A stretch of DNA of 63,405 nucleotides, the filler included, from Chrysochromulina tobinii (taxonomy: Eukaryota): assembly GCA_001275005.1 (NCBI GenBank). It is 7 parts of 7 records of this genome, joined end to end, with 100 filler letters (N's around TTAATTAATTAA, not from the genome) between each part and the next. Parts side by side here need not be neighbours in the genome. Positions count along the whole stretch, not along the records: positions 48,840 to 59,246 come from JWZX01000391.1; 6 more parts are not named here. One strand, written 5' to 3'. Positions 34,700 to 59,346 of the stretch are shown one piece after another. How positions within the stretch are numbered: position 1 is the first letter of the stretch; every line of letters starts with the position of its first letter. Under the pieces are notes generated by a model. The model did no database searches. It had not been told where the DNA came from and saw nothing but the letters and a program-made list of their open reading frames with translations. Position numbers and translations under genes: made by a program.

Positions 34700-35901
34700 C
34701 CCCCCTCCGCGCTTCCCCCCGCCCATCACCCCGGGTGGCGCCTACGTTCGCATCCTCACCGCCACCTTCCTCGTGGCCGACGGGCCGTTGGCCAATGCAA
34801 CCAGCGGCCGCCGGCTCCACGATCTCGATCTCGATCTCGATCTCGATCTCGATCTCGATCTCGTAACCGACGGGCCGTTGGCCAATGCAACCAGCGGCCG
34901 CCGGCTCCAAGCAGCCCTCGATCTCGAACGCTTACGGCTCAGCCTTTCCTTGTTACTCACTGGGGTCGAACCGCAACAAATCACGCTGACCTCCAGCGCC
35001 GTACCGGGCACCGACACATCCCTAGTCGTCGCACGGATCCGTCTGCCAATCGGTGCCAACACCACCGCGGCCGCGGCCACGATGTCGAGCCCCGTGTCCC
35101 TTGCGGCAATCTCATCCGTCCTCGGACTCACGGTATGCGGATGGCACTGATGAGCCATGCTTGCCTCTTGATGACATCTGATGACCCTTGATTGCCTCTT
35201 GATGACCTCTTGATGACCTCTTGATGACCTCTGATGGCCCCTACTCGTTTCGTGATGAACACTGATTGCCTCCCTCATCAGGTACAATCGGCCGGCGCGC
35301 CGTTCGCAGTGGTAGTGCTCATCCCGGCGCCCACGCAGCCGCCCACACCACCGCCCTCGCCGCCGCCGCGGCCGCCGCCCTCACCGCCGCCCTCACCGCC
35401 GCCGCCGTTGCCGGCGTGGCCGCCCAACGTCTCCCCGTCGCCACCAGCCGCGCTTCTCTTGCTCTCGCTGGACCAGGTACACTGATGAGCCATGATTGCC
35501 TCTTGATGACCTCTGATGGCCCCTAATTGCCTCCCTCATCGAGCGCTCACTGAACCAGGTCATCGGCGCTGTCGCGGTCGGTTTGGCCGTGGCCGTGGTG
35601 CTCGGGATGGCGCTCTGGCGCGTGCGATGGCGAGCGCGCCAGCAGGCGGCACAGGCTGAGAAGGCGGCGCGGGACGCGGTGCACTCTGCAGAGCGTGCCA
35701 CCGCGGAGCGGCGCGCAGCGGCCGAGCTCGGTCGAGCGCAGGTAGCCGGAGCGCTGCGGCGGGCGCGCGCCGTGCCGAGCGTTGACGGAGCAGAGGGCGA
35801 GGCGGACGACGAGAGCGATGAGGACAGTTGTGCGGTCGCCGCCACTGCTGCTGTGTCCGAAAAACCAGAGGCAGGGGCGACGGAGGCGACGGAGGCGACG
35901 G

Positions 35902-35962
<61 letters not shown>

Positions 35963-36269
35963 ATCAGACCATTGGACACCCACCATCCTTGAAAAGCCGG
36001 GAGCGGGTGTGCGTAAGGGGGTAGGTCAGACCCACCCCCTTCGTGAAAGAAGCCCGAGCGCCGTCCCGAGCGAGATAACGGCCGGCGCGGCGCGTGGCAT
36101 CATCGACGCTCGGTACGGCGCTCGAGGGATCAAGTTCATCGAGCGCCAACGCGTCATCGATCGTGAAGTCATCCACTATGTGGGAGACGAGGGCAACGCC
36201 ACCGCCATGGCGCTCGGTACGGCGCTCGCGGACAATGCCACCGCCACGGCGGACGGCTTCGGCGGCTAC

Positions 36270-36317
<48 letters not shown>

Positions 36318-37332
36318 AGTCTAAGCGCTGGGGGCAGTGGAAGCGCTGGGGGGCATGGACGGAGAATTCGGCGGACGTCAAAGGCGCGCGGCACTGCTCA
36401 GCCCCGAGGAGATTGAGGCGCTCGTACGCACAGCGATGCGGGATGAGATGCGACGAGCGAGGCGCTCCCCACACGCCACGCACGTTCCCCACACGCACGT
36501 CTCGTCGTCGAGGCGCTCAGCACGGCGCTCAACGCCCGAGCCCCGGACCTCGCCACCGCGCCATCCCCCACCCTCCTTGCGCCATCCCCCACCCTCCTTG
36601 CGCCATCCCCCACCCTCCTCGCCCTCGGGCCGCCAGCCCTTACGCTTGGGACGAAGCTCACGCGACGGCCACTATACCAAGGGCGCGCCGGGCACCTACA
36701 CCAGCCGAAGCGGCTCACACAGCCGAGATAACGTCCGAGATAACGACCGAGATAACGGCCGAGATAACGGACGAAGCGGCTCACACAGCCGCCCGCCGCC
36801 GAGCGACGCGCGCACGCGCCGTACTGAGCGCCTACGAGAGGAGCGCCGTACTGAGCATGGGCGAGGGGAGGTGGGCCGCACGCCCGGGCTCGATCAGCAC
36901 AATCCCTTTCTGCGGACCACCGACATGCCATCGGCTCTGCGGACTGCCAACATGCCCTCGGCACTGCGGACTGCCGACACGCCCTCGGCAGTCCGCAGTC
37001 CCTTCGTGCGGACTGCCGACACGCCCTCGGGGTCGCCCGGCGTGCAGCACAGCGGCGCATGCAACACCGCCGTGCCCGAGCGCCCCTTGCAGCCGTTACC
37101 AACGTCCGTCGAGAGCCCCTTGCGACCGTTCCCAACGGCCGTCGGCTCGCCTGCGGCCGTTGCAGCTGCGAGCATCGGGAGGCGCCCGGCGCCTCGGGTG
37201 CGGCGGTCACCCAACACAGGAGCATCTAGTCCATCCGTGCCCAACAGGGGCAGCAGGCTTAGGCATCAGGATAGTCACGATCGACGAGACAGAGGTCCAG
37301 CCACCGACCCGCCGCTGGTCGTTCGCGTGTAA
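34700..37332 (+). CDS. Single-pass membrane protein (5'-partial): Pro-rich stalk, TM helix, low-complexity cytoplasmic tail
   Basis: Exons ~34700-35132, 35282-35477 and 35559 onward; (S/P)PPP stalk; TM segment VIGAVAVGLAVAVVLGMALW. A frame discontinuity near the (GGC)n tract (~36270-36340) leaves the C-terminus uncertain (stop at 36416 or 37332). Confidence 0.55.
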
Positions 37333-37494
37333 GTTCACTCTTGAAAAGTACGCCTAGAAACCTTAGATGCTGAAACTCCTTCGCGCTTCGGCGCGATCGA
37401 TCATGGCGGTACCCGTGCCTTCGACCTTCGTGCCTTCGCGTGGCGGGGGGACCGCGACGAAACTGACTGACTGTGACTGTGAACACCGCCGGAA

Positions 37495-39725
37495 ATGTGG
37501 ACGGCCTTGCTCGTGGTCCGATCGCTAGCTGCTGTGTGCTTCACCATACCCCCAATTGTGCCCGATTGTGCTCCTTCGTGGGAGGCACTCAGCAAACGTG
37601 TGGCGGCCACATCCGTCGGGCAGAAGTTGCTCTCCGATGAGGGACAGCGTGCCGTGGGGCGAGGCCCTCCTCACACCGAGGCGACGCTTCGCCTCTTTGA
37701 CTCGGCCACTGAGTCCGATGTTCGAGTCACCTTCTTCCGCGACGACGCGGCCTGGTGCCCATACTGCCAGCGCTGCTGGCTCGTCCTCGAAGAGAAGCGC
37801 ATCCCGTACCGAGTGCGCAAGTTGCCGCTGAATGCCTACGGCTTGAAGCCGAGTTGGTTCACCAAGATGGTCGATGGTGGCAAGCTGCCTGCGGTGGAGC
37901 TCGACGGCAAGCTACACGTGGAGAGCCAGCACATCATCCGGCTCCTCGACGCCACCTTTCCTCAGTCGCCGCGCATGGTGCCCGCGCCCGGCAGCGCCGA
38001 CGAGGCTCGCACGGCCGACCTCCTCCGCTTGTCGAGCGAGATCGAGCGAGATTGGTTCTCGCTCGTCTTTTACCCGGTGGAGGAGGGCGAGGCGCTCGAG
38101 CGTGCGCAGGCGGCCCTCCTCGCCTCGCTGCGCCGACTCGACGACGCTCTCGCCTCCACGCCCGGAAGTTGGATGCTCGGTGGGGAGCACCTTTCGAACG
38201 CCGACGTGCAGTGGTGTGCATGCAAGTGCTCACCCCGGCGCCCTCCCCTCTCCCCACAGGTGGGGAGCACCCCTCGTACGCCGACGTGCAGATGATCACG
38301 ACCATCGAGCGGCTCGTGGCGAGTGTGCTCTATTGGAAGGGTCTGCACGTGCGCGCGTCGTCGATGGCGCCGGCGCGCTTTGCACACCTCGAGCGGTGGC
38401 TCGCTGCCTTCGAGGCGCGCCCATCCTACCTCGCGACCAAAGGTGATTGCCTCGGATGAGCTCTGAGAGCCTCTGATTGCCCATCTTACCTCGCGACCAA
38501 AGGTATCGCTCTGCTCCGATGGCCTCCCTCATCAGGTGATTACTACTCTCTCGTGATGGCGATGCCCTCCCAAAACGGGCCAGGCTACTCCTCCGCGGCA
38601 GCCAAGGCGGTAGCCTCACGCATCTATGGCATGGACGGCGAGTGGTCTCCGCACGCTCCAGGCCAGAGCCCCCACAGTCCAACGGTCGAGGGCGCCGTGG
38701 TGAGCGCTTGCATGCAAGGCAGGTCCAAGGCTCCAGGCCAGAGCCCCCCGAGTCCAACGGTCGAGGGCGCCGTGGTGAGCGCTTGCATGCAAGGCAGGTC
38801 CAAGGCTCCAGGCCAGAGCCCGCCGAGTCCAACGGTCGAGCCGCTCGCGCCACTCCATCTTGAGGGAGGTGTAACCGCCGCCTGTGATGGTGTAACCGCC
38901 GCCCTCACAGGTGTAACTGCCGCCCTCACCGGTGTAACCGCCGCCCTCACAGGTGTAACCGCCGCCCGTCACGAGGCCGCCTACCGGCTAATCACGAACC
39001 ATCAGCGCATCGTTCGTTTCGCCTCCCGGGGTGCGAGCGAGCCCTGATGAGCTTTGATTGCCTCCCTCATCAGGTCTGATGAGCTTTGATTGCCTCCCTC
39101 ATCAGGTGCGAGCGAGCCTGGGGTACCTTCCTTCCACGCGGAGCTCGCCGACCCGTAAGCGGCGCCTCGGATCGACCTCTGATGGCTTCCCTGATGGCCT
39201 CTGAATGACCTCGATTGACCTCGGATGGCCTCTGATGGCCTCTGATGGCCTCTGATGACCTCTGATGGCCTCTAATGGCCTCTGATGGCCTCTGATTGGC
39301 TCTGATGACCTATGATGGCCTCTGATGGACCTCTGATTGCCTCCCTCATCAGGTGCGCCGAGCCTCGGTTCGAGTTTGAGGCGCCGCTCGATGTCTGCCT
39401 GCGCCACGTGGCCGCCGCGCTGCTGGACGACGGCGGGCCTGTGGAAGAGGCCGCGAGATCGAATCTGCGAGGCGTTGCCGCGGGCGCGCCGCTCGTCGAC
39501 GACTGGAACGAGTACGAGGACGTCGACGGGCGGCCGTACTATTGGAACGAGCTCAACGGGAAGATGAGCTACACGCCCCCCACTCGGCAGCTCGATCATT
39601 GCCTCGCGTACCTGCGCGATCGGGTGGGCGTCCCTCGGGACCTATCGCCCGCCGCAGCGCTCGCACTGCGCAGACAGCTGAACGCGATGATCGAGCTCGT
39701 GTGTGACGGTGGGAGGGTTGGATAG
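37495..39725 (+). CDS. Glutathione S-transferase (Cys-type, CPYC; algal omega/lambda/DHAR-like) with a WW-like insert; N-terminal signal peptide
   Basis: RDDAAWCPYCQRCWLVLEEKRIPY...KP.WF...GKLPAVELDG...ES; ERLVASVLYWKG; GDYYS..M..P.Q.G; ELADP. Exons 37495-38179, 38260-38442, 38536-~39029, 39106-39154 and 39353-39725. Confidence 0.88.
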
Positions 39726-50851: not shown

Positions 50852-53517
50852 TCAGAAGCATGGCGAGCGCGAGCGGCAGCCGCGCCACCGCCGGAGCCAC
50901 CGCCTCAGCGGCGAGAGCGCCCGCAACGGCGCCCGCATCACCGGCGGCGACGTGCGCACCACCGGCGGCGCCGAAGCCTTCGACGAGACCTGACGAAACC
51001 GGACGTCGTGGCGACGAAGCGCCGCGTTGAAGGCGAGGAGATTCTCGGGCCACTCTGGACGTCCCCCAACGGCATCCCTACCGGCCTGGAGGGCTCCTGC
51101 GGTCTCCCAACGGCCCGCCCTCTGGCAAGCGGCGATGGCGACGTTGTAGGTGGTTACGTCCGGGCTCACGCCCGACGCACGCATCTGCTCGAGCAATCAG
51201 GCGCAATCAATCGCAATCAATCGCAATCAATCGCAATCAGTCGCAATCAATCGCAATCAATCGCAATCAGGCGTACCTGCTGGAGCAACCCAATCGCAAT
51301 CAGTCGCAATCAGTCGCATTCAGTCGCACCTGCTGGAGCAACCCAATCGCAATCAGTCGCAATCAGTCGCAATCAGTCGCACCTGCTGGAGCAACCCAAT
51401 CGCAATCAGTCGCAATCAGTCGCATTCAGTCGCACCTGCTGGAGCAACCCAATCGCAATCAGTCGCAATCAGTCGCAATCAGTCGCAATCAGTCGCAATC
51501 AGGCGCACCTGCTGGAGCAACCCAATCGTTTGCTCCCACCGGCCACCCTTTTCGAGAGCAGCGAGGGCGGCGTTGTACGTGATCGTGTTGGGCGCGACGC
51601 CGACCTGCATGCAATCAGACACGCAGAGGAATGTGCAGAGGCACTCAGCGGCAATCAATGTCTCATCAGAGGCACTCAAGCGCAATCATGGTCTCATCAG
51701 AGGCACTCAGAGCACCGTCCGATGTCAATCAGTCGCAATCAGTCGCAATCACCTGGCGCATCTGCTCGAGGAGGGCATTCAATCGCAATCAATCGCAATC
51801 AGTCGCAATCAGTCGCAATCACCTGGCGCATCTGCTCGAGGAGGGCATTCAATCGCAATCAATCGCAATCAGTCGCAATCAGTCGCAATCACCTGGCGCA
51901 TCTGCTCGAGGAGGGCGAGCGCCTCGTTCCACAGCCCGCCCTTGGCACACGCCGCAACGGCAGCACTGAAGCTGATCACATTCGGGCTCACGCCCCGAGC
52001 TCGCATCTCCCGCAGGAGATCGAGAGCTCGCGTGAGCTCGCCGCCCTTTTCACACGCCGAGATCGCGGACGAGTATGAATATACGTCGGGCGTCACCCCC
52101 GCAGATCGCATCTCGTCAAGCAGCCCGTGCGCCTGCATCCAGCGGCGGTCATCAGCGGTCATCAGTGGCAATCAGTGGCACTCAGCGCACCTGCACCACG
52201 TGGCAGAGGGTCATCAGCGGCCATCAGTGCTCATAAGATTGCACTCAATGGCAATCAGCGGCACTCAGCGCACCTGCTGCCACTCGCCGCTGCCCTCGCA
52301 CGCGGCAATCGCCGCATTGTAGCTGTACACGTCAGGCCTGATCCCTGTCGACTTCATCGTCTTCAGCAGCGCGAGTGCCCTCGCGCTCTCACCTGATGAG
52401 GGATGCAATCAGCATGCAATCACGCTCTCACCTGATGAGGGAGGCAATCAGCATGCAATCAGGGAGGTCTCACCTCCTTTAGCAAGCGCCGAGAGCGCCG
52501 AGTTGAACGTAATCACGTCCGGTGCGACCCCGGCAGTACGCATCTCATTAAGTAAGCTGAGTGCACGCTGCCACTCTTGCGCCTTGGCGCACCTGATGAG
52601 GGAGGCCATCAGCATGCAATCAGCATGCAATCAGCAGTCACTCAGCGACGCTCAACGGCAATCTGATGAGTGAGGTAATCAGCATGCAATCAGCATGCAT
52701 GCACGCACGCGGAGATGGCCGAGTTGAAGCTGACCACATTAGGGACATGGCTGATGAGTGAGGTAATCAGCATGCATGCATGCACGCACGCGGAGATGGC
52801 CGAGTTGAAGCTGACCACATTAGGGACGATGTTACACGAGCGCATCGCAACGAGAAGCGAGACAGCTCTCTCCCACTCGGCGGCCTTGGCACATGCGGCG
52901 ATTGCGCTGTTGAACGAGATCACATCTGGCTGCACGCCCGCCTTGGGCATCGTCATCAGCAGCTGCATCGCACGCTCCCACAAGCCGGCCTTGGCGAGCG
53001 CTGACAGGGCGCTGTTGAAGGTGATCGTGTTGGCGTTCAGGCCCGCCGCGCGCATCTCATCGACCAGCCGGAGCGCGCGCTCCCACGCGCCGCCCTTGGC
53101 ACACGCCGAGATCGCCGAGTTGAAGCTGACCTCGTTCGGAGGCACGCCGGCCGCCCGCATCGCGTCAAGGAGCGCCAACGCCTCCTCCCACCGTCCGGCC
53201 TTTTCGCACGCGGCGATGGCCGCGCTGTAGCTGAAGACGTCGGGATCGACTCCGGCCGATTTCATCTCGTCGAGCAGCCCAATAGCGCGCTTCCAGTCCC
53301 GCGAACGGCCGTACGCGCTGATGCCCATGCTAAACTCCTTGACATTCTGCGGCTGGTGCTCGGCGAGCAGCCGCTCAATGTTGGCGCTGCCGTGCGCAAG
53401 CTTGAGGTCACTCTGGTAGAGCTGCCGTCGGGCGCGGTTTGCGTCAAGGGAATCGTGGACCCGTGGGCCGGGTGAGCTCGCGAGAGCGAGCGCATAGCAA
53501 GAGGCAGCTAAGAGCAT
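50852..53517 (-). CDS. Pentatricopeptide repeat (PPR) protein with an N-terminal signal peptide (probably plastid-targeted)
   Basis: More than ten 35-aa repeats P(D/N)V.S(F/Y)NSAISAC.K.G.WE.AL.LL.EM...GV over ~6 exons separated by GCAATCA-rich introns; N-terminus MLLAASCYALALA. Confidence 0.92.
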
Positions 53518-53722
53518 GTTTTTCCAATCAATCTCGTCGATCTGCCGCGACAGCGCGTTTCGTCACAGACATGAACGACATGAACGGAAAGTTCTTAACA
53601 TACCGAGGTGCTGCGTCCTGTGCCCGTGCTCTCCTGTGCTCGCTCATTCCACTTAAGGTTCATCTTCAGTGCATCTTCTCGCAGCCGATGGCGCGATGTT
53701 CATCTGCTGTTGGCGATGTTCA

Positions 53723-53873
53723 TCAGCCGATGGCGATGTTGAACATCTCCTCTAGGTCGAGATCGTCATCATCGATGGCACCCGCGTCGGTCTCCTCGCC
53801 ATATCCACCCTCATAGTAGCGATTGTCTTCCTCATAGCCATCCTCATAGGCGCCCTCGCCGTTGTCGTCCTCA

Positions 53874-53927
<54 letters not shown>

Positions 53928-56900
53928 TCATATTGCGGCTCGTATAGCGGATTGAAGTCGGCGATGAGCTCGTTCACCACGGGCTCGGTGACGGGCCAGT
54001 GCGAGGCACCCTCCTCGTTTTGGTAAAAGTAGAGCTGCGAACCCTTTTCAGGCCACCAGTACTTGTCACCGGCGCCGGCGCCGGTTCGGCGGTGCTGCAG
54101 GCCCATGAGGTAGGCATGCTGCTTCGCGGGCACGTTGGCCACGTGGCGTCGCCATGGCTCGCACGCATGCACGCACGTCGCGAGGTGATCCGAGTGATCC
54201 ATATCCATATCCGGGATGACGACCACGAACGACATCGGGCCGTCCGCCTATCGGAACGCCGCCGCAATCAGGGAGGTTATTAGCGAGGACATCAGTGAGG
54301 CCATCATCAGAGAGGCCATCAGTGAGGCCATCATCAGTGAGGCCATCAGCGCACCTGTCGGAACAGCGCCGCAATGTGCTGATGAGGGACGCAATCAGAG
54401 GTCATCAGAGGCCATCAGCGCACCTGTCGGAACAGCGCCGCAATGTGCAGAAAGCATGCACACACCGAGGCCTTGTCGAAGGGGGGATTCGCTTCGAAGG
54501 ATCCGGAGCGCGGCCGGAAGGACTGAAACGGCCCGACCGCCCCAAAGTAACGGTCGGAGTCGAACCAAGCCGAGCAGTACATTCCGCACCCAAAGTGCTT
54601 GTAGCGGTTGAGCGGTGAGGCGTAGCATTCGAAATCGACGCCGAGGCACCGCTGAGGCGGGGGAGAGGAGGCATTATGAGATGCGCAGAGGCGTCATCAG
54701 AGGCACACCGCACCTGGAGCGTTGCCATCAGAGGCGTCATCAGAGGCGTCATCAGAGGCGCAGAGGCGTCATCAGAGGCACTCCGCACCTGGAGCGTCGC
54801 CATCAAGCGCCGTGGCAGCGCCGCTTGATTGGCACTCTTGTCCATCGAGATCGCATCGTACCTGATGAGGGAGGCAATCAGCATGCACTCAAATGGCCGC
54901 CTGATTGGCACTCTCGTCCATCGAGATCGCATCGAGAGCGCATCTCGTACCGGTACGCCATCGCGAAGAGGCGCGTCAGCATCAGGCTCTCATCGTGCCC
55001 ACCGGAGATGTACATCTCGCGAAGGTCGTCGAAATGCGAGCTCCACATCTCCACCGTGTGCTCCTCCACCTCATCACTGGCGCTGCCCTCGCCGCCACCC
55101 TTGCCGCCGCCCTTGCCGCCGCCCTTGCCGCCGCCGCCCTTGCCCACGCCGCCCTTGCCGCCGCCCAAGCCGCCGCCGCCGATGCCCACCGGTCGGTAGA
55201 CGATCTGCACGGACTCGGGATCCGTTGGGTGAGGGCTCATCAGGGGTAATCAGTGGGTCATCAGGGGTAATTAGTGGGTCATCTGGGGTAATTAGTGGGT
55301 CATCAAGGGTAATTACCTGCACGGACTCGGGATCCGTTGGGTGAGGGCGCTTGAAGACGCCCAGCTGTCTGTCGCCGAGCGTCACGCCGCGATGAGAGAT
55401 GGCCTTTTTCCAGTGCTCCTGGAGCCCCTGGGCGTTCTCAAGCAGATCCGAGGCCGCCTTGGTGGCAAACTTGGAGAGACCCTCAGCCAATTCGTACCTG
55501 ATGAGGGAGGCAATCAGCATGCAATCGGAGGCCGCCCTGGAGTCAAGCTGGGTGTCCCTCTCATACCAGAAGCCGTCATCGTTGGACTCGCGCTGTGGGA
55601 AGTTGGCGCGGTACGTGCTCTTCAGTTGCGACGCCAGCCATCGAACGACGAGCGAGTCTGTGGGCGACGGAAGGGCTCATCAGGGCTCATCAGGGCTCAT
55701 CAGGGCTCATCAGGGCTCATCAGGGCTCATCAGGGCTCATCAGGGCTCATCAGGGCTCATCAGGGCTCATCAGGGGTAATCAGTGGAGGCACACCTGTAC
55801 GTGAGGGAATGACCGGCTCGAGTGGGCACGCGCTATGTGCGGAGGCGTCCGGGTCGGTATTGGCGACCACCACGAAAAAGATCCACTTCGAAATGATGTC
55901 CCATGCAAGCTTGCGCTCCAAATAAGGCAACCGGCGCACCGCGTCCGCCGCGCGCGCGCCGGACGCGGCACCATAGCGTACAGACGAGGGAGGTGGACGC
56001 GCCGAGAGCCCGCCCGAGGCCGAGGCGGGGCTGCCGACGGCATGGATGCGCTGCTCCACGTGGCAGAGGGTCATCAGCGGTCATCAGTGGCAATCAGTGG
56101 CAATCAGTGGCAATGAGGGGCAATCAGCGGCAATCAGCGCACCTGCACCACGTGGCAGAGGGTCATCAGCGGTCATCAGTGGCAATCAGCGGCAATCAGC
56201 GCACCTGCACCACGTGGCAGAGAGCGTCGTAACGGTCGACGGCGCTGCCCGGGAGTTCGAGCCCGTACCTGATGAGGAAGGCCATCAGAGAGGCCATCAG
56301 AGGCCATCAGAGAGGCCATCAGGGAACTCGAGCACATACACAGCCTCCAGTGGCAATCAGTGGCAATCAGTGGCAATCAGTGGCAATCAGTGGCAATCAG
56401 TGGCAATCAATGGCAATCAGAGAACTCGAGCACATACACAGCCTCCTGGCTCGCCGCGGACAGCTGATGAGGGAGACAATCAGCATGCAATCAGCATGCA
56501 ATCAGCAGGCAATCAGGGAGCATACACAGCCTCCTGGCTAGCCGCGGACAGCAGGTCCTCAACTGCCGGCCCAATCTCCTGCTCGAGCTGCTCGTGCAGC
56601 GCCGTGGTGGGCGTTGCGTGCGGCGGCGACAGCGTGAGCGTTGGAGGCACGAAGCTCCGCTCGGGCACAAAGTGCCCGTCGCGAAAGGTGAAGGGCCATA
56701 CCTGATGAGGGAGGCAATCATCATGCAATCGAGATGCGATCTCGGGCACAAAGCGCCCGTCGCGAGAGGTGAGGGGCCATACCCAGGCGCGTAACCACCC
56801 CTTCATCGCCTCCTGCTGCGCGGGCGCGCGGTAGCAACTGATGGCATCCGCGAACTTGGAGTTGGTGACGAGGATGGCGCGCCGTGCGATCGCGCAGTGG

Positions 56901-59148
56901 ACGAGGGGGGGCAGCTCGCGCGCATTCAAACCCTCGGGCGCGAATTCCGCAAGCTGCTCCTCGTGGATGAGCTTCCACAGCTCATTACGGCGCGAGATGA
57001 CGATCTCATCAGCCAGATTCGATCTGCCGCCCTCCATCCAGATACGTGGCACGAGGCAGGTCACGTTGTAGCCGCGGCTGAGCAGTTCCATCTGCGCTTG
57101 GCGCACCTGATGAGGGAGGCCATCAGCATGCAATCAGCATGCGATCAGCATGCCATCAGTATGCCATCAGCATGCAATCAGCAGTTCCATCTGCGCTTGG
57201 CGCACGGCGTTCAGATTGAGGAATCCCATCTCGAGCGGATTGTCGGCCGCTGCCACCGACGAGCAGTCGATGAGGATGGATGGGATCACCGCGGCCCGAG
57301 ATGGGATCTCCGCGGTCCGAGATGGGATCTGGATCTCCGCGGTCCGAGATGGCGCCGCCGCCGCCGCCGCTCTGGCCAAGGGCGCTGCCACGGGCGCCAT
57401 GGGCGCGAACGCGGGCGGCGTGTGCGATGCGAATGGGGGCAGCTGTGAATGTGAATGTGAATGGGAATGGGACATTATGTTCACGGCGGCGCTCGACAGG
57501 GCGGGCAGTGCCATGCCGAGCGGCGTCAGCAGCGTCGTGGCGGGCGTCGCGTCCACGGCGCCGGCACCAAAAGTCTCGTCATTGGCGCCATCGGCGTCCG
57601 CCTCGTCCGTCACTCTCAAGGCACCCTCCGGAGCGTTATCTCCCTGATCGAGCTCCGCATCTCCCTGATCGAGCTCCGCATCTCCCTGCTCGAGCTCCGC
57701 ATTCCACGTGGCCGCCGTGTAGCCTAAAATGGAAGCCGCGCGCTGCTCGACGGCCGTGAGCGTCGCCCACGCATGCATGCACGTCGGGGGTGCCTCGCCT
57801 CGGTCCCACGAGGTTTCGTCATAACCGAGCCACGCCGCGGCTCGTCGCTCGTCCCAGGTCAGATCTCCCCACAGGAGCCCATCGGGGCCCGCCGCACGCC
57901 CAGTTTCGTCATGTGCCCGCGGCAGCGCCGCCGCACGCCCAGTTTCGTCATGTGCCCACGGCAGCGCCGCCGCGGCGGATGCGGTTGGCGCCGGCGGTCG
58001 CGCCGAGGGCGGTGTCGACGGCGCCGTTGCGGGCGCCGCCGTAGCCACACGTAACGGTACCGGTACGGAGGCGAGGGCGGGTTCCCACAGCGCGCGATGG
58101 GGGCTCGTGGCGGCCCAGATGGCGGCGGGGTCATCGGGGCGTAGGGCAGGTAGGGCAGGTAGGGCAGGTAGGGCAGGTAGGGCGGGGAGCTCGTCGGGGG
58201 GTTGGGCATGGGTGCGCTGGTGCGTAGGCGGTGACGACGGCGACAGCGGATGGAGTGGCACTACGTTCGCGTCGTGCGCGAGGGTACCTGTGAATGAGGA
58301 AGGTGCTGTCAAGGAGGGACGAGGTGCGTCGAGCGCGCTGTGGCGAGCGCTGGTGACCCAAATAGGTTCTCATTGGCAATCAACGCACCCTTGCCACCCG
58401 GAGCGTCATCAGAACTCATCAGGAGTCATCAGTGGCCATCAACGCACCCTTGCCGCCAGGAGCGCCCAACTCCCGCAGGAACGTGGACGTCTCCACCGCG
58501 TTGAGCTTCCCAGCCTTGAGGTGCATCGTGTCTGGCAGCTTCCATTGCCGCACGGTACCCAGCCGGCACACACGCACCTGCGCAGGGAAGCCGGACGTTT
58601 CATGCGACCGGCGGGTAGTGGCGCTACTCCAAGCCGTAGGCTCGAGGTTCATCTGCGGCGCGTCGGTCGCGTAAAAGGGGCCGTACAGCACACGCCTGCT
58701 CGAGAGGAGGTGGGGGGCGCCGTGGTGAGCGCTTGCATGCAAGGCAGGTCCTCAGAGGCAATTGACGAACCTCGAGAAGTTGAGGAGGAAGAGCGGCGTG
58801 ACGGCCGGCTCGATGTCACGGCGTAGGGTCGGGAGTTGCCCGCCGTGCTCGCCAAAGAGGGCGCGCCGCATGCACTCGTCGTACCTGATGAGGGAGGCAA
58901 TCAGCATGCCGTCAGCTGCCCGCCGTGCTCGCTAAAAAGAGGGCGCGCCGCATGCACTCGTCGTACCTGATGAGGGAGGCAATCAGCATGCCATCAGCTG
59001 CCCGCCCGTGCTCGCAAAAAAGAGGGCGCGCCGCATGCTCTCGTCGTACGTTTGGCTCGAGCACATGAAGAGGAAGCCGAGTGAAGGCACCGAGGCCGCT
59101 ACGGCGGAGGACGAAGGGCCGCTGCCGCCGCCGCCGCCGCCGCCGCCG
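53723..59148 (-). CDS. Multidomain protein (5'-partial): DCD domain, W..L...E..AA..LGY..W repeats, NYN/Regnase-like PIN domain, and PCIF1/CAPAM-type N6-adenine methyltransferase
   Basis: About 14 exons chain in frame at GT-AG sites. DCD: GFLFMC...TYDEC..RALFG...PLFLLNF..RVLYGPFYA...NLEPTAW...FPAQVRV. NYN: ILIDCSSVA...LVP...ILVTNSKFAD...WPFTFRDGHFVP. MTase: YRY...QAALP...FECYASPLN...YCSAWFDSDRYFG..GPF..F.P.SGSFEANPPF (NPPF at 54489-54478)...MSFVVVIP...H.Y..GLQH...YQNEEGA..WP. Confidence 0.85.
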
Positions 59149-59158
59149 AAAAAAAAAA

Positions 59159-59246
59159 GAGCGCCTCGTTCCACAGCCCGCCCTTGGCACACGCCGCAAC
59201 GGCAGCACTGAAGCTGATCACATTCGGGCTCACGCCCCGAGCTCGC
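59159..59246. repeat. 88-bp exact copy of PPR exon sequence 51917-52004 at the contig end
   Basis: GAGCGCCTCGTTCCACAGCCCGCC...CCCCGAGCTCGC is identical at both sites and follows a poly-A run. Confidence 0.9.
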
Positions 59247-59346
59247 NNNNNNNNNNNNNNNNNNNNNNNNNNNNNNNNNNNNNNNNNNNNTTAATTAATT
59301 AANNNNNNNNNNNNNNNNNNNNNNNNNNNNNNNNNNNNNNNNNNNN
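59247..59346. other. Artificial contig-join spacer
   Basis: 44 N + TTAATTAATTAA + 44 N. Confidence 0.99.

Follow-up and report, generated by a model that had tools for sequence, protein, structure and literature searches.

Tandem DCD Domains and a Degenerate NYN-Like Domain Joined to a PCIF1/CAPAM Methyltransferase Core in the Haptophyte Chrysochromulina tobinii

Introduction

In animals, PCIF1 (CAPAM) reaches nascent mRNA by means of a WW domain with affinity for the polymerase tail. An N-terminal WW domain is usual, not universal, among PCIF1/CAPAM proteins, and the CAPAM helical domain confers cap specificity. Here, we describe a gene of the haptophyte Chrysochromulina tobinii in which a PCIF1/CAPAM methyltransferase core follows DCD domains and a Regnase-type NYN-like domain. 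The gene lies at 53723..59148 on the minus strand of a stretch of 63,405 nucleotides (the window), which was joined with filler from seven parts of GenBank assembly GCA_001275005.1; the part concerned comes from JWZX01000391.1.

CAPAM has been described with the layout 'WW-linker-HD-MTD', in which HD is the helical domain and MTD the methyltransferase domain (PMC10544176). The text of Bell, Wolf & Koonin 2020 (BMC Biol 18:159, PMC7641849) reports a DCD-CAPAM-like fusion in C. tobinii, termed 'the only example detected', and a choanoflagellate DCD-CAPAM-like fusion that also carries eTudor. According to the same text, the Pfam family PCIF1_WW really represents the CAPAM-like methyltransferase, and the DCD domain is suggested to stand in the place of the helical domain. 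The DCD domain is read there as an EVE/YTH-like reader of modified bases that targets the writer, and fusions of DCD domains with DNA methyltransferases are noted for prokaryotes. With these fusions in print for C. tobinii and choanoflagellates, the statement in an initial annotation of the present locus that no protein with this architecture had been described does not stand.

The gene analyzed here resembles the published fusion in having a DCD domain N-terminal to a CAPAM-type methyltransferase, within one polypeptide of a chromist-type alga. However, the published text has one DCD domain, no NYN domain, and DCD replacing the helical domain, whereas the present protein has two DCD domains and a degenerate NYN domain and keeps the helical domain. 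This comparison is with the text and legends of that paper, in which 'NYN' occurs 0 times, and the published fusion may or may not be the orthologue of this gene. No description of an NYN module in a DCD-PCIF1 fusion was found in the portions covered of the literature searched on PCIF1 with DCD, NYN, haptophytes, and protists or N6,2'-O-dimethyladenosine (m6Am), and a PIN-superfamily catalogue makes no mention of PCIF1 or DCD. Judged from sequence comparison, what is new here relative to the published fusion is the tandem DCD pair, the pseudo-NYN domain, and the retained helical domain.

Two further systems are close to parts of the protein. Like animal PCIF1/CAPAM (PDB 6irv, 6irx, and 6irz), it has a helical domain and a Rossmann methyltransferase domain with NPPF, matching PF12237; in contrast to animal PCIF1/CAPAM, it lacks WW and has ~1040 extra N-terminal residues (two DCD domains and the NYN domain), a Gly/Lys insert, and an acidic tail. 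With the NYN domains of Regnase-1/ZC3H12A-C and KHNYN (3v33, 7ndi, 6sjd, and 8wzc), it shares family membership by transitive hidden Markov model evidence, the first Asp, and the 'IDxS.VA' start. Unlike those proteins, it has no CCCH zinc finger, has lost D226 and D244, and falls exon by exon below Pfam detection.

Results and Discussion

Gene structure and transcription

The minus strand carries what is very probably one expressed gene with DCD-NYN-PCIF1 architecture. Fourteen exons are chained by 13 introns with GT-AG ends, and one frame stays open from 59148 to 53723; once the 13 introns are removed, this frame comprises 1237 in-window residues and ends in a TGA at 53723-53725. This bears out the initial annotation, in which about 14 exons had been chained in frame through all domains. 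The region has a GC content of 0.61-0.65, and its minus-strand coding pieces are split by short GT…AG introns, as seen in stop-to-stop frames and the raw sequence. The in-window parts are as follows, with residues numbered in the full-length model given below.

59050..59148, minus strand: in-window end of exon 1, comprising the last part of the Gly/Ser linker and strand 1 of DCD2 (…GFLFMCSSQT)
58449..59087, minus strand: DCD2, exons 1-3, residues 405-537; introns 58885-59049 and 58696-58770
57206..58287, minus strand: exon 4 (360 codons, frame open), with the Pro/Ala-rich linker, two W…LGY…W repeats, and the first NYN-like strand
56654..57286, minus strand: Zc3h12a-type NYN-like domain, residues 872-1022; introns 57107-57205 and 56702-56782; first Asp codon at 57266-57268
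55055..56261, minus strand: CAPAM-type helical domain with a Gly/Lys low-complexity insert, residues ~1068-1312; introns 56051-56204, 55658-55794, 55498-55566, and 55205-55316
53930..55054, minus strand: PCIF1/CAPAM methyltransferase domain, residues 1313-1553; introns 54862-54950, 54652-54788, and 54248-54423
54478..54489, minus strand: codons of the NPPF catalytic motif, residues 1426-1429, placed by coordinate mapping
53723..53929, minus strand: Gly-rich, acidic C-terminal tail with LDLEEMFNIAIG, residues 1554-1621; stop at 53723-53725

Sixteen public sequencing runs contain the stretch, among them six RNA libraries carrying 0.54-0.61 of its words. Contigs of four RNA runs were placed on 52600-59245, and the counts of joints given here refer to the joints listed for them. 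At least 10 of the 13 introns had RNA joints, reading CT..AC on the plus strand and thus GT..AG on the gene strand. Eight introns recurred in all four runs and two (54248-54423 and 56051-56204) in two of the four; the joint 58694/58770, inside DCD2, was present in all four. Each intron is listed with the evidence for it.

54248-54423, 54652-54788, and 54862-54950, minus strand: methyltransferase side; RNA joints, shifted to canonical dinucleotides
55498-55566, 55658-55794, and 56051-56204, minus strand: helical-domain side; RNA joints
56269-56525, 57107-57205, 58288-58447, and 58696-58770, minus strand: NYN side and upstream; RNA joints
56702-56782, minus strand: exact length accounting in X13 record 16 (231 = 176 + 64 - 9) and missing from the spliced relatives P0005, P0006, and P0018; not among the joints listed
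55205-55316, minus strand: P0005 and P0007 read '...SVQIVW...' across it; not among the joints listed
58885-59049, minus strand: paralogous DCD1 and P0021; not among the joints listed

Individual RNA contigs connect the domains. X13 record 16, a contig of 1053 nt, crosses five introns between 57318 and ~55469, from the NYN-like start into the PCIF1 helical region, and transcripts therefore do not end between the NYN and methyltransferase parts. X13 record 15 joins 53938-54246, 54423-54651, 54789-54855, and 54945 onward, thereby connecting the methyltransferase exons to the 3' end, and X15 record 19 likewise joins 53938-54246 with 54423-54651 and beyond. At the other end of the gene, X11 record 6 joins 58154-58285, 58446-58694, and 58770 onward, which takes DCD2 into exon 4. 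Two RNA contigs (57301-57960 and 58154-58285) lie within exon 4, and RNA contigs pass the stop codon and reach ~53547.

Alternatively, the architecture could be an artefact in which two or three adjacent genes seem fused through chance open frames in GC-rich DNA. No single contig covers the whole gene, and the opposite strand holds a chance open reading frame of 333 codons, as such an artefact would lead one to expect. However, spliced contigs cross both the NYN/PCIF1 and the DCD2/linker boundaries, and all 13 introns keep one frame. Proteins of other organisms also combine the same parts, with NYN plus PCIF1 in P0005, P0006, and P0024 and DCD plus DCD plus NYN in P0021. We therefore regard a chance fusion as very improbable. 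The gene escapes prokaryote-style gene callers, and P0001, P0002, and P0017 in the database represent only pieces of such proteins, with introns partly read as coding sequence.

The PCIF1/CAPAM core

The methyltransferase part was identified as a PCIF1 domain with an intact NPPF motif in the initial annotation, and this assignment holds. The exon at 54424-54651 alone (frame 54415-54693) matched Pfam PF12237 (PCIF1_WW) with an E value of 2.6e-21 and 76.4 bits, against a cut-off of 31.1, and the NPPF codons map to 54478-54489. RNA joints and coordinate mapping agreed on the boundaries of this exon as first proposed. A relative, P0005, matched zebrafish CAPAM (PDB 6irx) with an E value of 1.2e-25 over the methyltransferase domain, SGSFEANPPF being identical, and it aligned to the window exons, including those of the helical domain, at 31-73% identity.

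The AlphaFold model of P0005, made from a 17-row alignment, had a mean predicted local distance difference test score (pLDDT) of 70, and in the core (110-560) blocks of ten residues were mostly at 70-97. In Foldseek, its strong matches were CAPAM entries only, with six chains at E<=0.001. VIA-align placed residues 122-557 of the model on residues 193-673 of the CAPAM chains with Z scores of 27.8-28.6 and root mean square deviations (rmsd) of 3.1-3.7 A; for 6irz and 6irv specifically, the values were Z 28.3-28.6 and rmsd 3.1-3.4 A over 349-364 residues (chain range 194-673). The next unrelated methyltransferases reached Z < 8. Because P0005 aligns to the window exons and its model spans both the CAPAM helical domain and the methyltransferase domain, the window protein is judged to retain the CAPAM helical domain, by homology to this modeled relative.

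No WW domain was detected with Pfam at E<=1 in any window open reading frame or in L002:6535-8124, a segment from another assembly that supplies the N terminus of the gene (see below). The absence of WW, proposed earlier for the part of the gene visible in the window, thus extends to the recovered N-terminus. At the opposite end, the acidic C terminus bears a conserved motif, LDLEE(M/L)xN(I/L), at 53726-53770 (minus strand), common to P0003, P0004, and P0005. It may be a short linear interaction motif.

An alternative concerns the substrate: the enzyme might act not on the cap-adjacent adenosine but, for example, on internal adenosines in RNA or on DNA, producing N6-methyladenine (6mA), with the DCD domains reading modified DNA. 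With no WW domain found, there is no obvious tie to early transcription, and the prokaryotic fusions of DCD with DNA methyltransferases (PMC7641849) set a precedent for a DNA substrate. In contrast, the PCIF1 clade is regarded as RNA-modifying in the text of PMC4738411, and two non-metazoan PCIF1 homologues are cap-specific in vitro according to a preprint (10.64898/2026.10.22.757692). The fold comparison also argues for a cap substrate, as the helical domain that confers cap specificity keeps its fold in P0005 (Z 28). A different substrate is therefore unlikely, and methylation of the cap-adjacent adenosine remains the favored activity for this core.

The NYN-like domain

The domain in the middle of the protein required indirect evidence. 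It is split over three exons, and the window sequence was scanned piecewise. The three nearest clusters to the NYN exon in the ESM Atlas carry PF11977 at 0.88-0.89, which serves as a lead only. A HMMER search (phmmer) with the exon at 56783-57106 against 1.84 billion representatives returned 11 proteins at E<=0.001, two of which (P0022 and P0026) were set aside as repeat proteins. P0020 (exon match, E 5.4e-16) and P0025 (exon match, E 5.8e-6) reached PF11977 at 31.4 and 24.7 bits, respectively, against a cut-off of 23, and P0021 had a weak PF11977 match besides its DCD stretches. A four-sequence NYN profile, A1, had no PDB match at E<=10. The eight-sequence family profile A4 had eight PDB matches at E<=10, all eight being NYN domains of ZC3H12A/B/C or KHNYN (best E value, 0.0068). 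A phmmer search of PDB with P0020 gave only LptD (E 1.4), which was dismissed as noise. On these profile comparisons, the middle domain genuinely belongs to the Zc3h12a-type NYN domains, in degenerate form. The NYN assignment of the initial annotation thus stands through relatives P0020 and P0025 and through profile A4, which hit only NYN chains, and not through the window pieces themselves, which fall below Pfam detection.

Regnase-1 binds Mg through D141, D225, D226, and D244, and all four are described as crucial in the text of PMC6573786; a fifth aspartate, D248, is on the list in PMC5499597. The A4 alignment to ZC3H12C pairs 'ILIDCSS' with 'VVIDGSN', 'R-E-L-P-P-L-V' with 'Y-D-D-R-F-I-V', and 'LVTNSK' with 'IVSNDN'. 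Read against Regnase-1 in this alignment, D141 is kept, D225 is replaced by E, D226 by L, and D244 by S. This matches the initial reading that the domain keeps the first Asp (ILIDCS) and loses the DD and SND acids, as DD reads E-L and the D of SND reads S. The DD pair is kept in none of the seven fused-family relatives that cover the position, which have LPPL (P0005, P0024, P0025, and P0027), GQPPL (P0006), PEDPL (P0020), or LPAL (P0021) instead. Since part of the aspartate site is lost and the DD pair is absent in relatives, the NYN domain is probably not a nuclease.

In an alternative reading, the protein is a reader-cutter-writer, in which NYN is still an active endoribonuclease and RNA is both cleaved and methylated. 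This reading would be consistent with the retained first Asp, the Glu at the D225 position, and an Asp at the D248 position (…KFAD) reached by simple extension of the ZC3H12C alignment; moreover, members of the RNase_Zc3h12a family have 0-5 active-site residues (PMC5499597). However, the D226 to L and D244 to S replacements affect positions among the four reported as crucial in Regnase-1 (PMC6573786), and the lack of the DD pair in all relatives covering it looks like a conserved non-catalytic state. We consider an active nuclease distinctly unlikely and favor a degenerate NYN domain that is probably non-catalytic.

The DCD domains and the upstream part of the gene

The DCD assignment of the initial annotation was upheld for DCD2 and also for a second domain upstream, DCD1, with PF10539 above the cut-off for both. 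The third piece of DCD2 alone (frame 58419-58751) scored 28.3 bits, against a cut-off of 27.8, and the spliced relative P0017 scored 46.8 bits. DCD1 lies beyond the edge of the window and was recovered from metagenome contigs. A scan of contigs with an NYN-like alignment led to five loci, four of which (L001-L004) are 99% identical to the query, the fifth (L005) being a 96% relative. L002-L004 agree with the window at 99.85-99.87% identity, and this agreement stops exactly at 59148. L001, which has one tandem intron unit fewer, matches the window at positions up to 58966 and L002 farther upstream. Upstream of 59148, L001-L004 have a long (GGC/AGC)n tract and then the first DCD domain, whereas T10 and a fragment resembling PPR occupy the window above this position (59149-59245). 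Because four other assemblies of the same organism agree on a different upstream sequence, the segment at 59149-59245 is, on sequence comparison, a scaffold misjoin. An N-run with the TTAATTAATTAA linker lies next to it, at 59246-59345. The extent first proposed for the gene, 53723..59148, is thus correct at the 3' end, which is the stop codon; its 5' end is the misjoin, and the gene runs on upstream with a second DCD domain.

In L002:6535-8124, the frame is open for 529 codons and contains DCD1 (PF10539, 61.9 bits, E 6.7e-17). DCD1 and DCD2 match in 73 of 153 aligned columns. The putative start is the ATG at L002 6808, and P0021 has a similar N-terminus. The predicted full model has 14 exons and 1621 residues, a length that depends on this putative start. 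The window codes for model residues 385-1621, identical to the L002 model, and ~384 residues lie upstream. The N-terminal motif is shared by P0021 (780 amino acids), whose single chain also contains two stretches matching DCD (97.7 bits) as well as the start of the NYN domain. For the N-terminal 71 residues, the ESM Atlas gave no usable match, and a UBA-like assignment was unsupported. The following parts complete the model.

Model residues 1-60: N-terminal helical stretch
Model residues ~105-250: DCD1, in L002, outside the window
Model residues 250-400: Gln/Pro and Gly/Ser linker
Model residues 540-870: Pro/Ala-rich linker

Exon 4, which carries the last of these linkers, matched no Pfam family at E<=1. 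Between DCD2 and NYN, the linker contains two W-x(n)-LGY-x(n)-W repeats, at 57704-57871 (minus strand).

Related proteins

The fused layout was found in a handful of proteins of other organisms. The NYN-like domain and PF12237 occur in one chain in P0005, P0006, and P0024. A word-indexed homologue search returned one fragment with the NYN exon, one fragment with the DCD exon, and, with the NPPF exon, 15 PCIF1 proteins, which were annotated with PF12237 only.

Proposed function

We propose that the protein is an active cap m6Am writer whose DCD and NYN domains contribute to RNA selection, a reading to which we give somewhat better than even chances as a whole. The mode of action is about evenly balanced. 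The core is predicted to N6-methylate the cap-adjacent adenosine in the manner of CAPAM. For the tandem DCD pair, the expected ligand is a modified base in RNA; the NYN domain, presumably inactive, would bind the RNA backbone or structure without cutting. Together, the DCD and NYN domains would replace recruitment through WW and the carboxy-terminal domain of RNA polymerase II, giving a reader-coupled writer. Such an arrangement might couple RNA methylation to RNA surveillance.

Several observations weigh against this proposal. None of the contigs of the four RNA runs extends from one end of the gene to the other, and transcript ends are beyond what contigs can reveal. The pieces listed leave two stretches, 55093-55468 and 57961-58153, that are connected through the continuous reading frame alone, at low, nonzero depth. 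Five further joints, located at introner repeats, lack canonical ends and have short sides (20-24 letters); we rejected these as genuine splices and regard them as artefacts of the repeated intron motif. The NYN pieces of the window had no Pfam, PHROGs, or NCBIfam match at E<=1, and an AlphaFold model of window 56526-57106, which includes the in-frame intron of 27 residues, had a mean pLDDT of 43.6. Finally, the only RNAs in which m6A Cap-1 has been reported to date are vertebrate and viral, according to the preprint text (10.64898/2026.10.22.757692).

A more specific version of the proposal is a self-contained reader-writer of the 5' end, in which the DCD domains would read a mark, the dead NYN domain would clamp the RNA, and marks rather than the polymerase would trigger cap-adjacent N6-methylation. 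This version is speculative and rather improbable. In algae exposed to strong pressure from viruses, such a reader-writer could propagate marks or label caps as self or non-self.

Introner-like introns and neighboring genes

The 13 introns of the gene, six of which terminate in C(C/T)CTCATCAG, resemble introners. The motif TGCCTCCCTCATCAGGT occurs 14 times in the window, where 0 occurrences are expected, including at 35267-39354 (plus strand) and 52391-52607 (minus strand). Many introns carry at one end a long duplicate of neighboring exon sequence, of 26 nt at 57107-57205 and, judged by eye, ~31 nt at 55205-55316 and ~50 nt at 58885-59049. Intron 58885-59049 consists of two tandem ~83-nt units, one of which is missing in L001. 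Intron 55658-55794 holds (CCCTGATGAG)n and measures 127 nt in L002 versus 137 nt in the window. Intron 56702-56782, of 81 nt, is in frame and stop-free and is read through in P0001; the 14 codons at its start are almost a repeat of the exon that follows.

Directly downstream lies a PPR-repeat gene (52690-53562, minus strand; PPR_2, E 2e-49), with RNA contigs at 52785-53525 and the introner motif at 52391-52607. The upstream neighbor, outside the window at L002:5130-7052 (plus strand), encodes pentapeptide repeats and PF25296 'Decapeptide' repeats (E 1.7e-33), and a similar copy of this repeat gene is present at L002:3664-4878.

Conclusions

The gene corrects the published picture of the DCD-CAPAM-like fusion in that the DCD domain does not replace the helical domain and an unnoticed NYN domain lies between the two. 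An algal lineage appears to have kept the catalytic core of PCIF1/CAPAM and to have traded the WW anchor for a domain derived from an RNase and two predicted nucleic-acid readers, the DCD domains. Provided that it is active, the enzyme would represent a second, RNA-guided route to cap m6Am targeting, offer a natural handle on DCD ligands, and extend cap m6Am beyond vertebrates and viruses.

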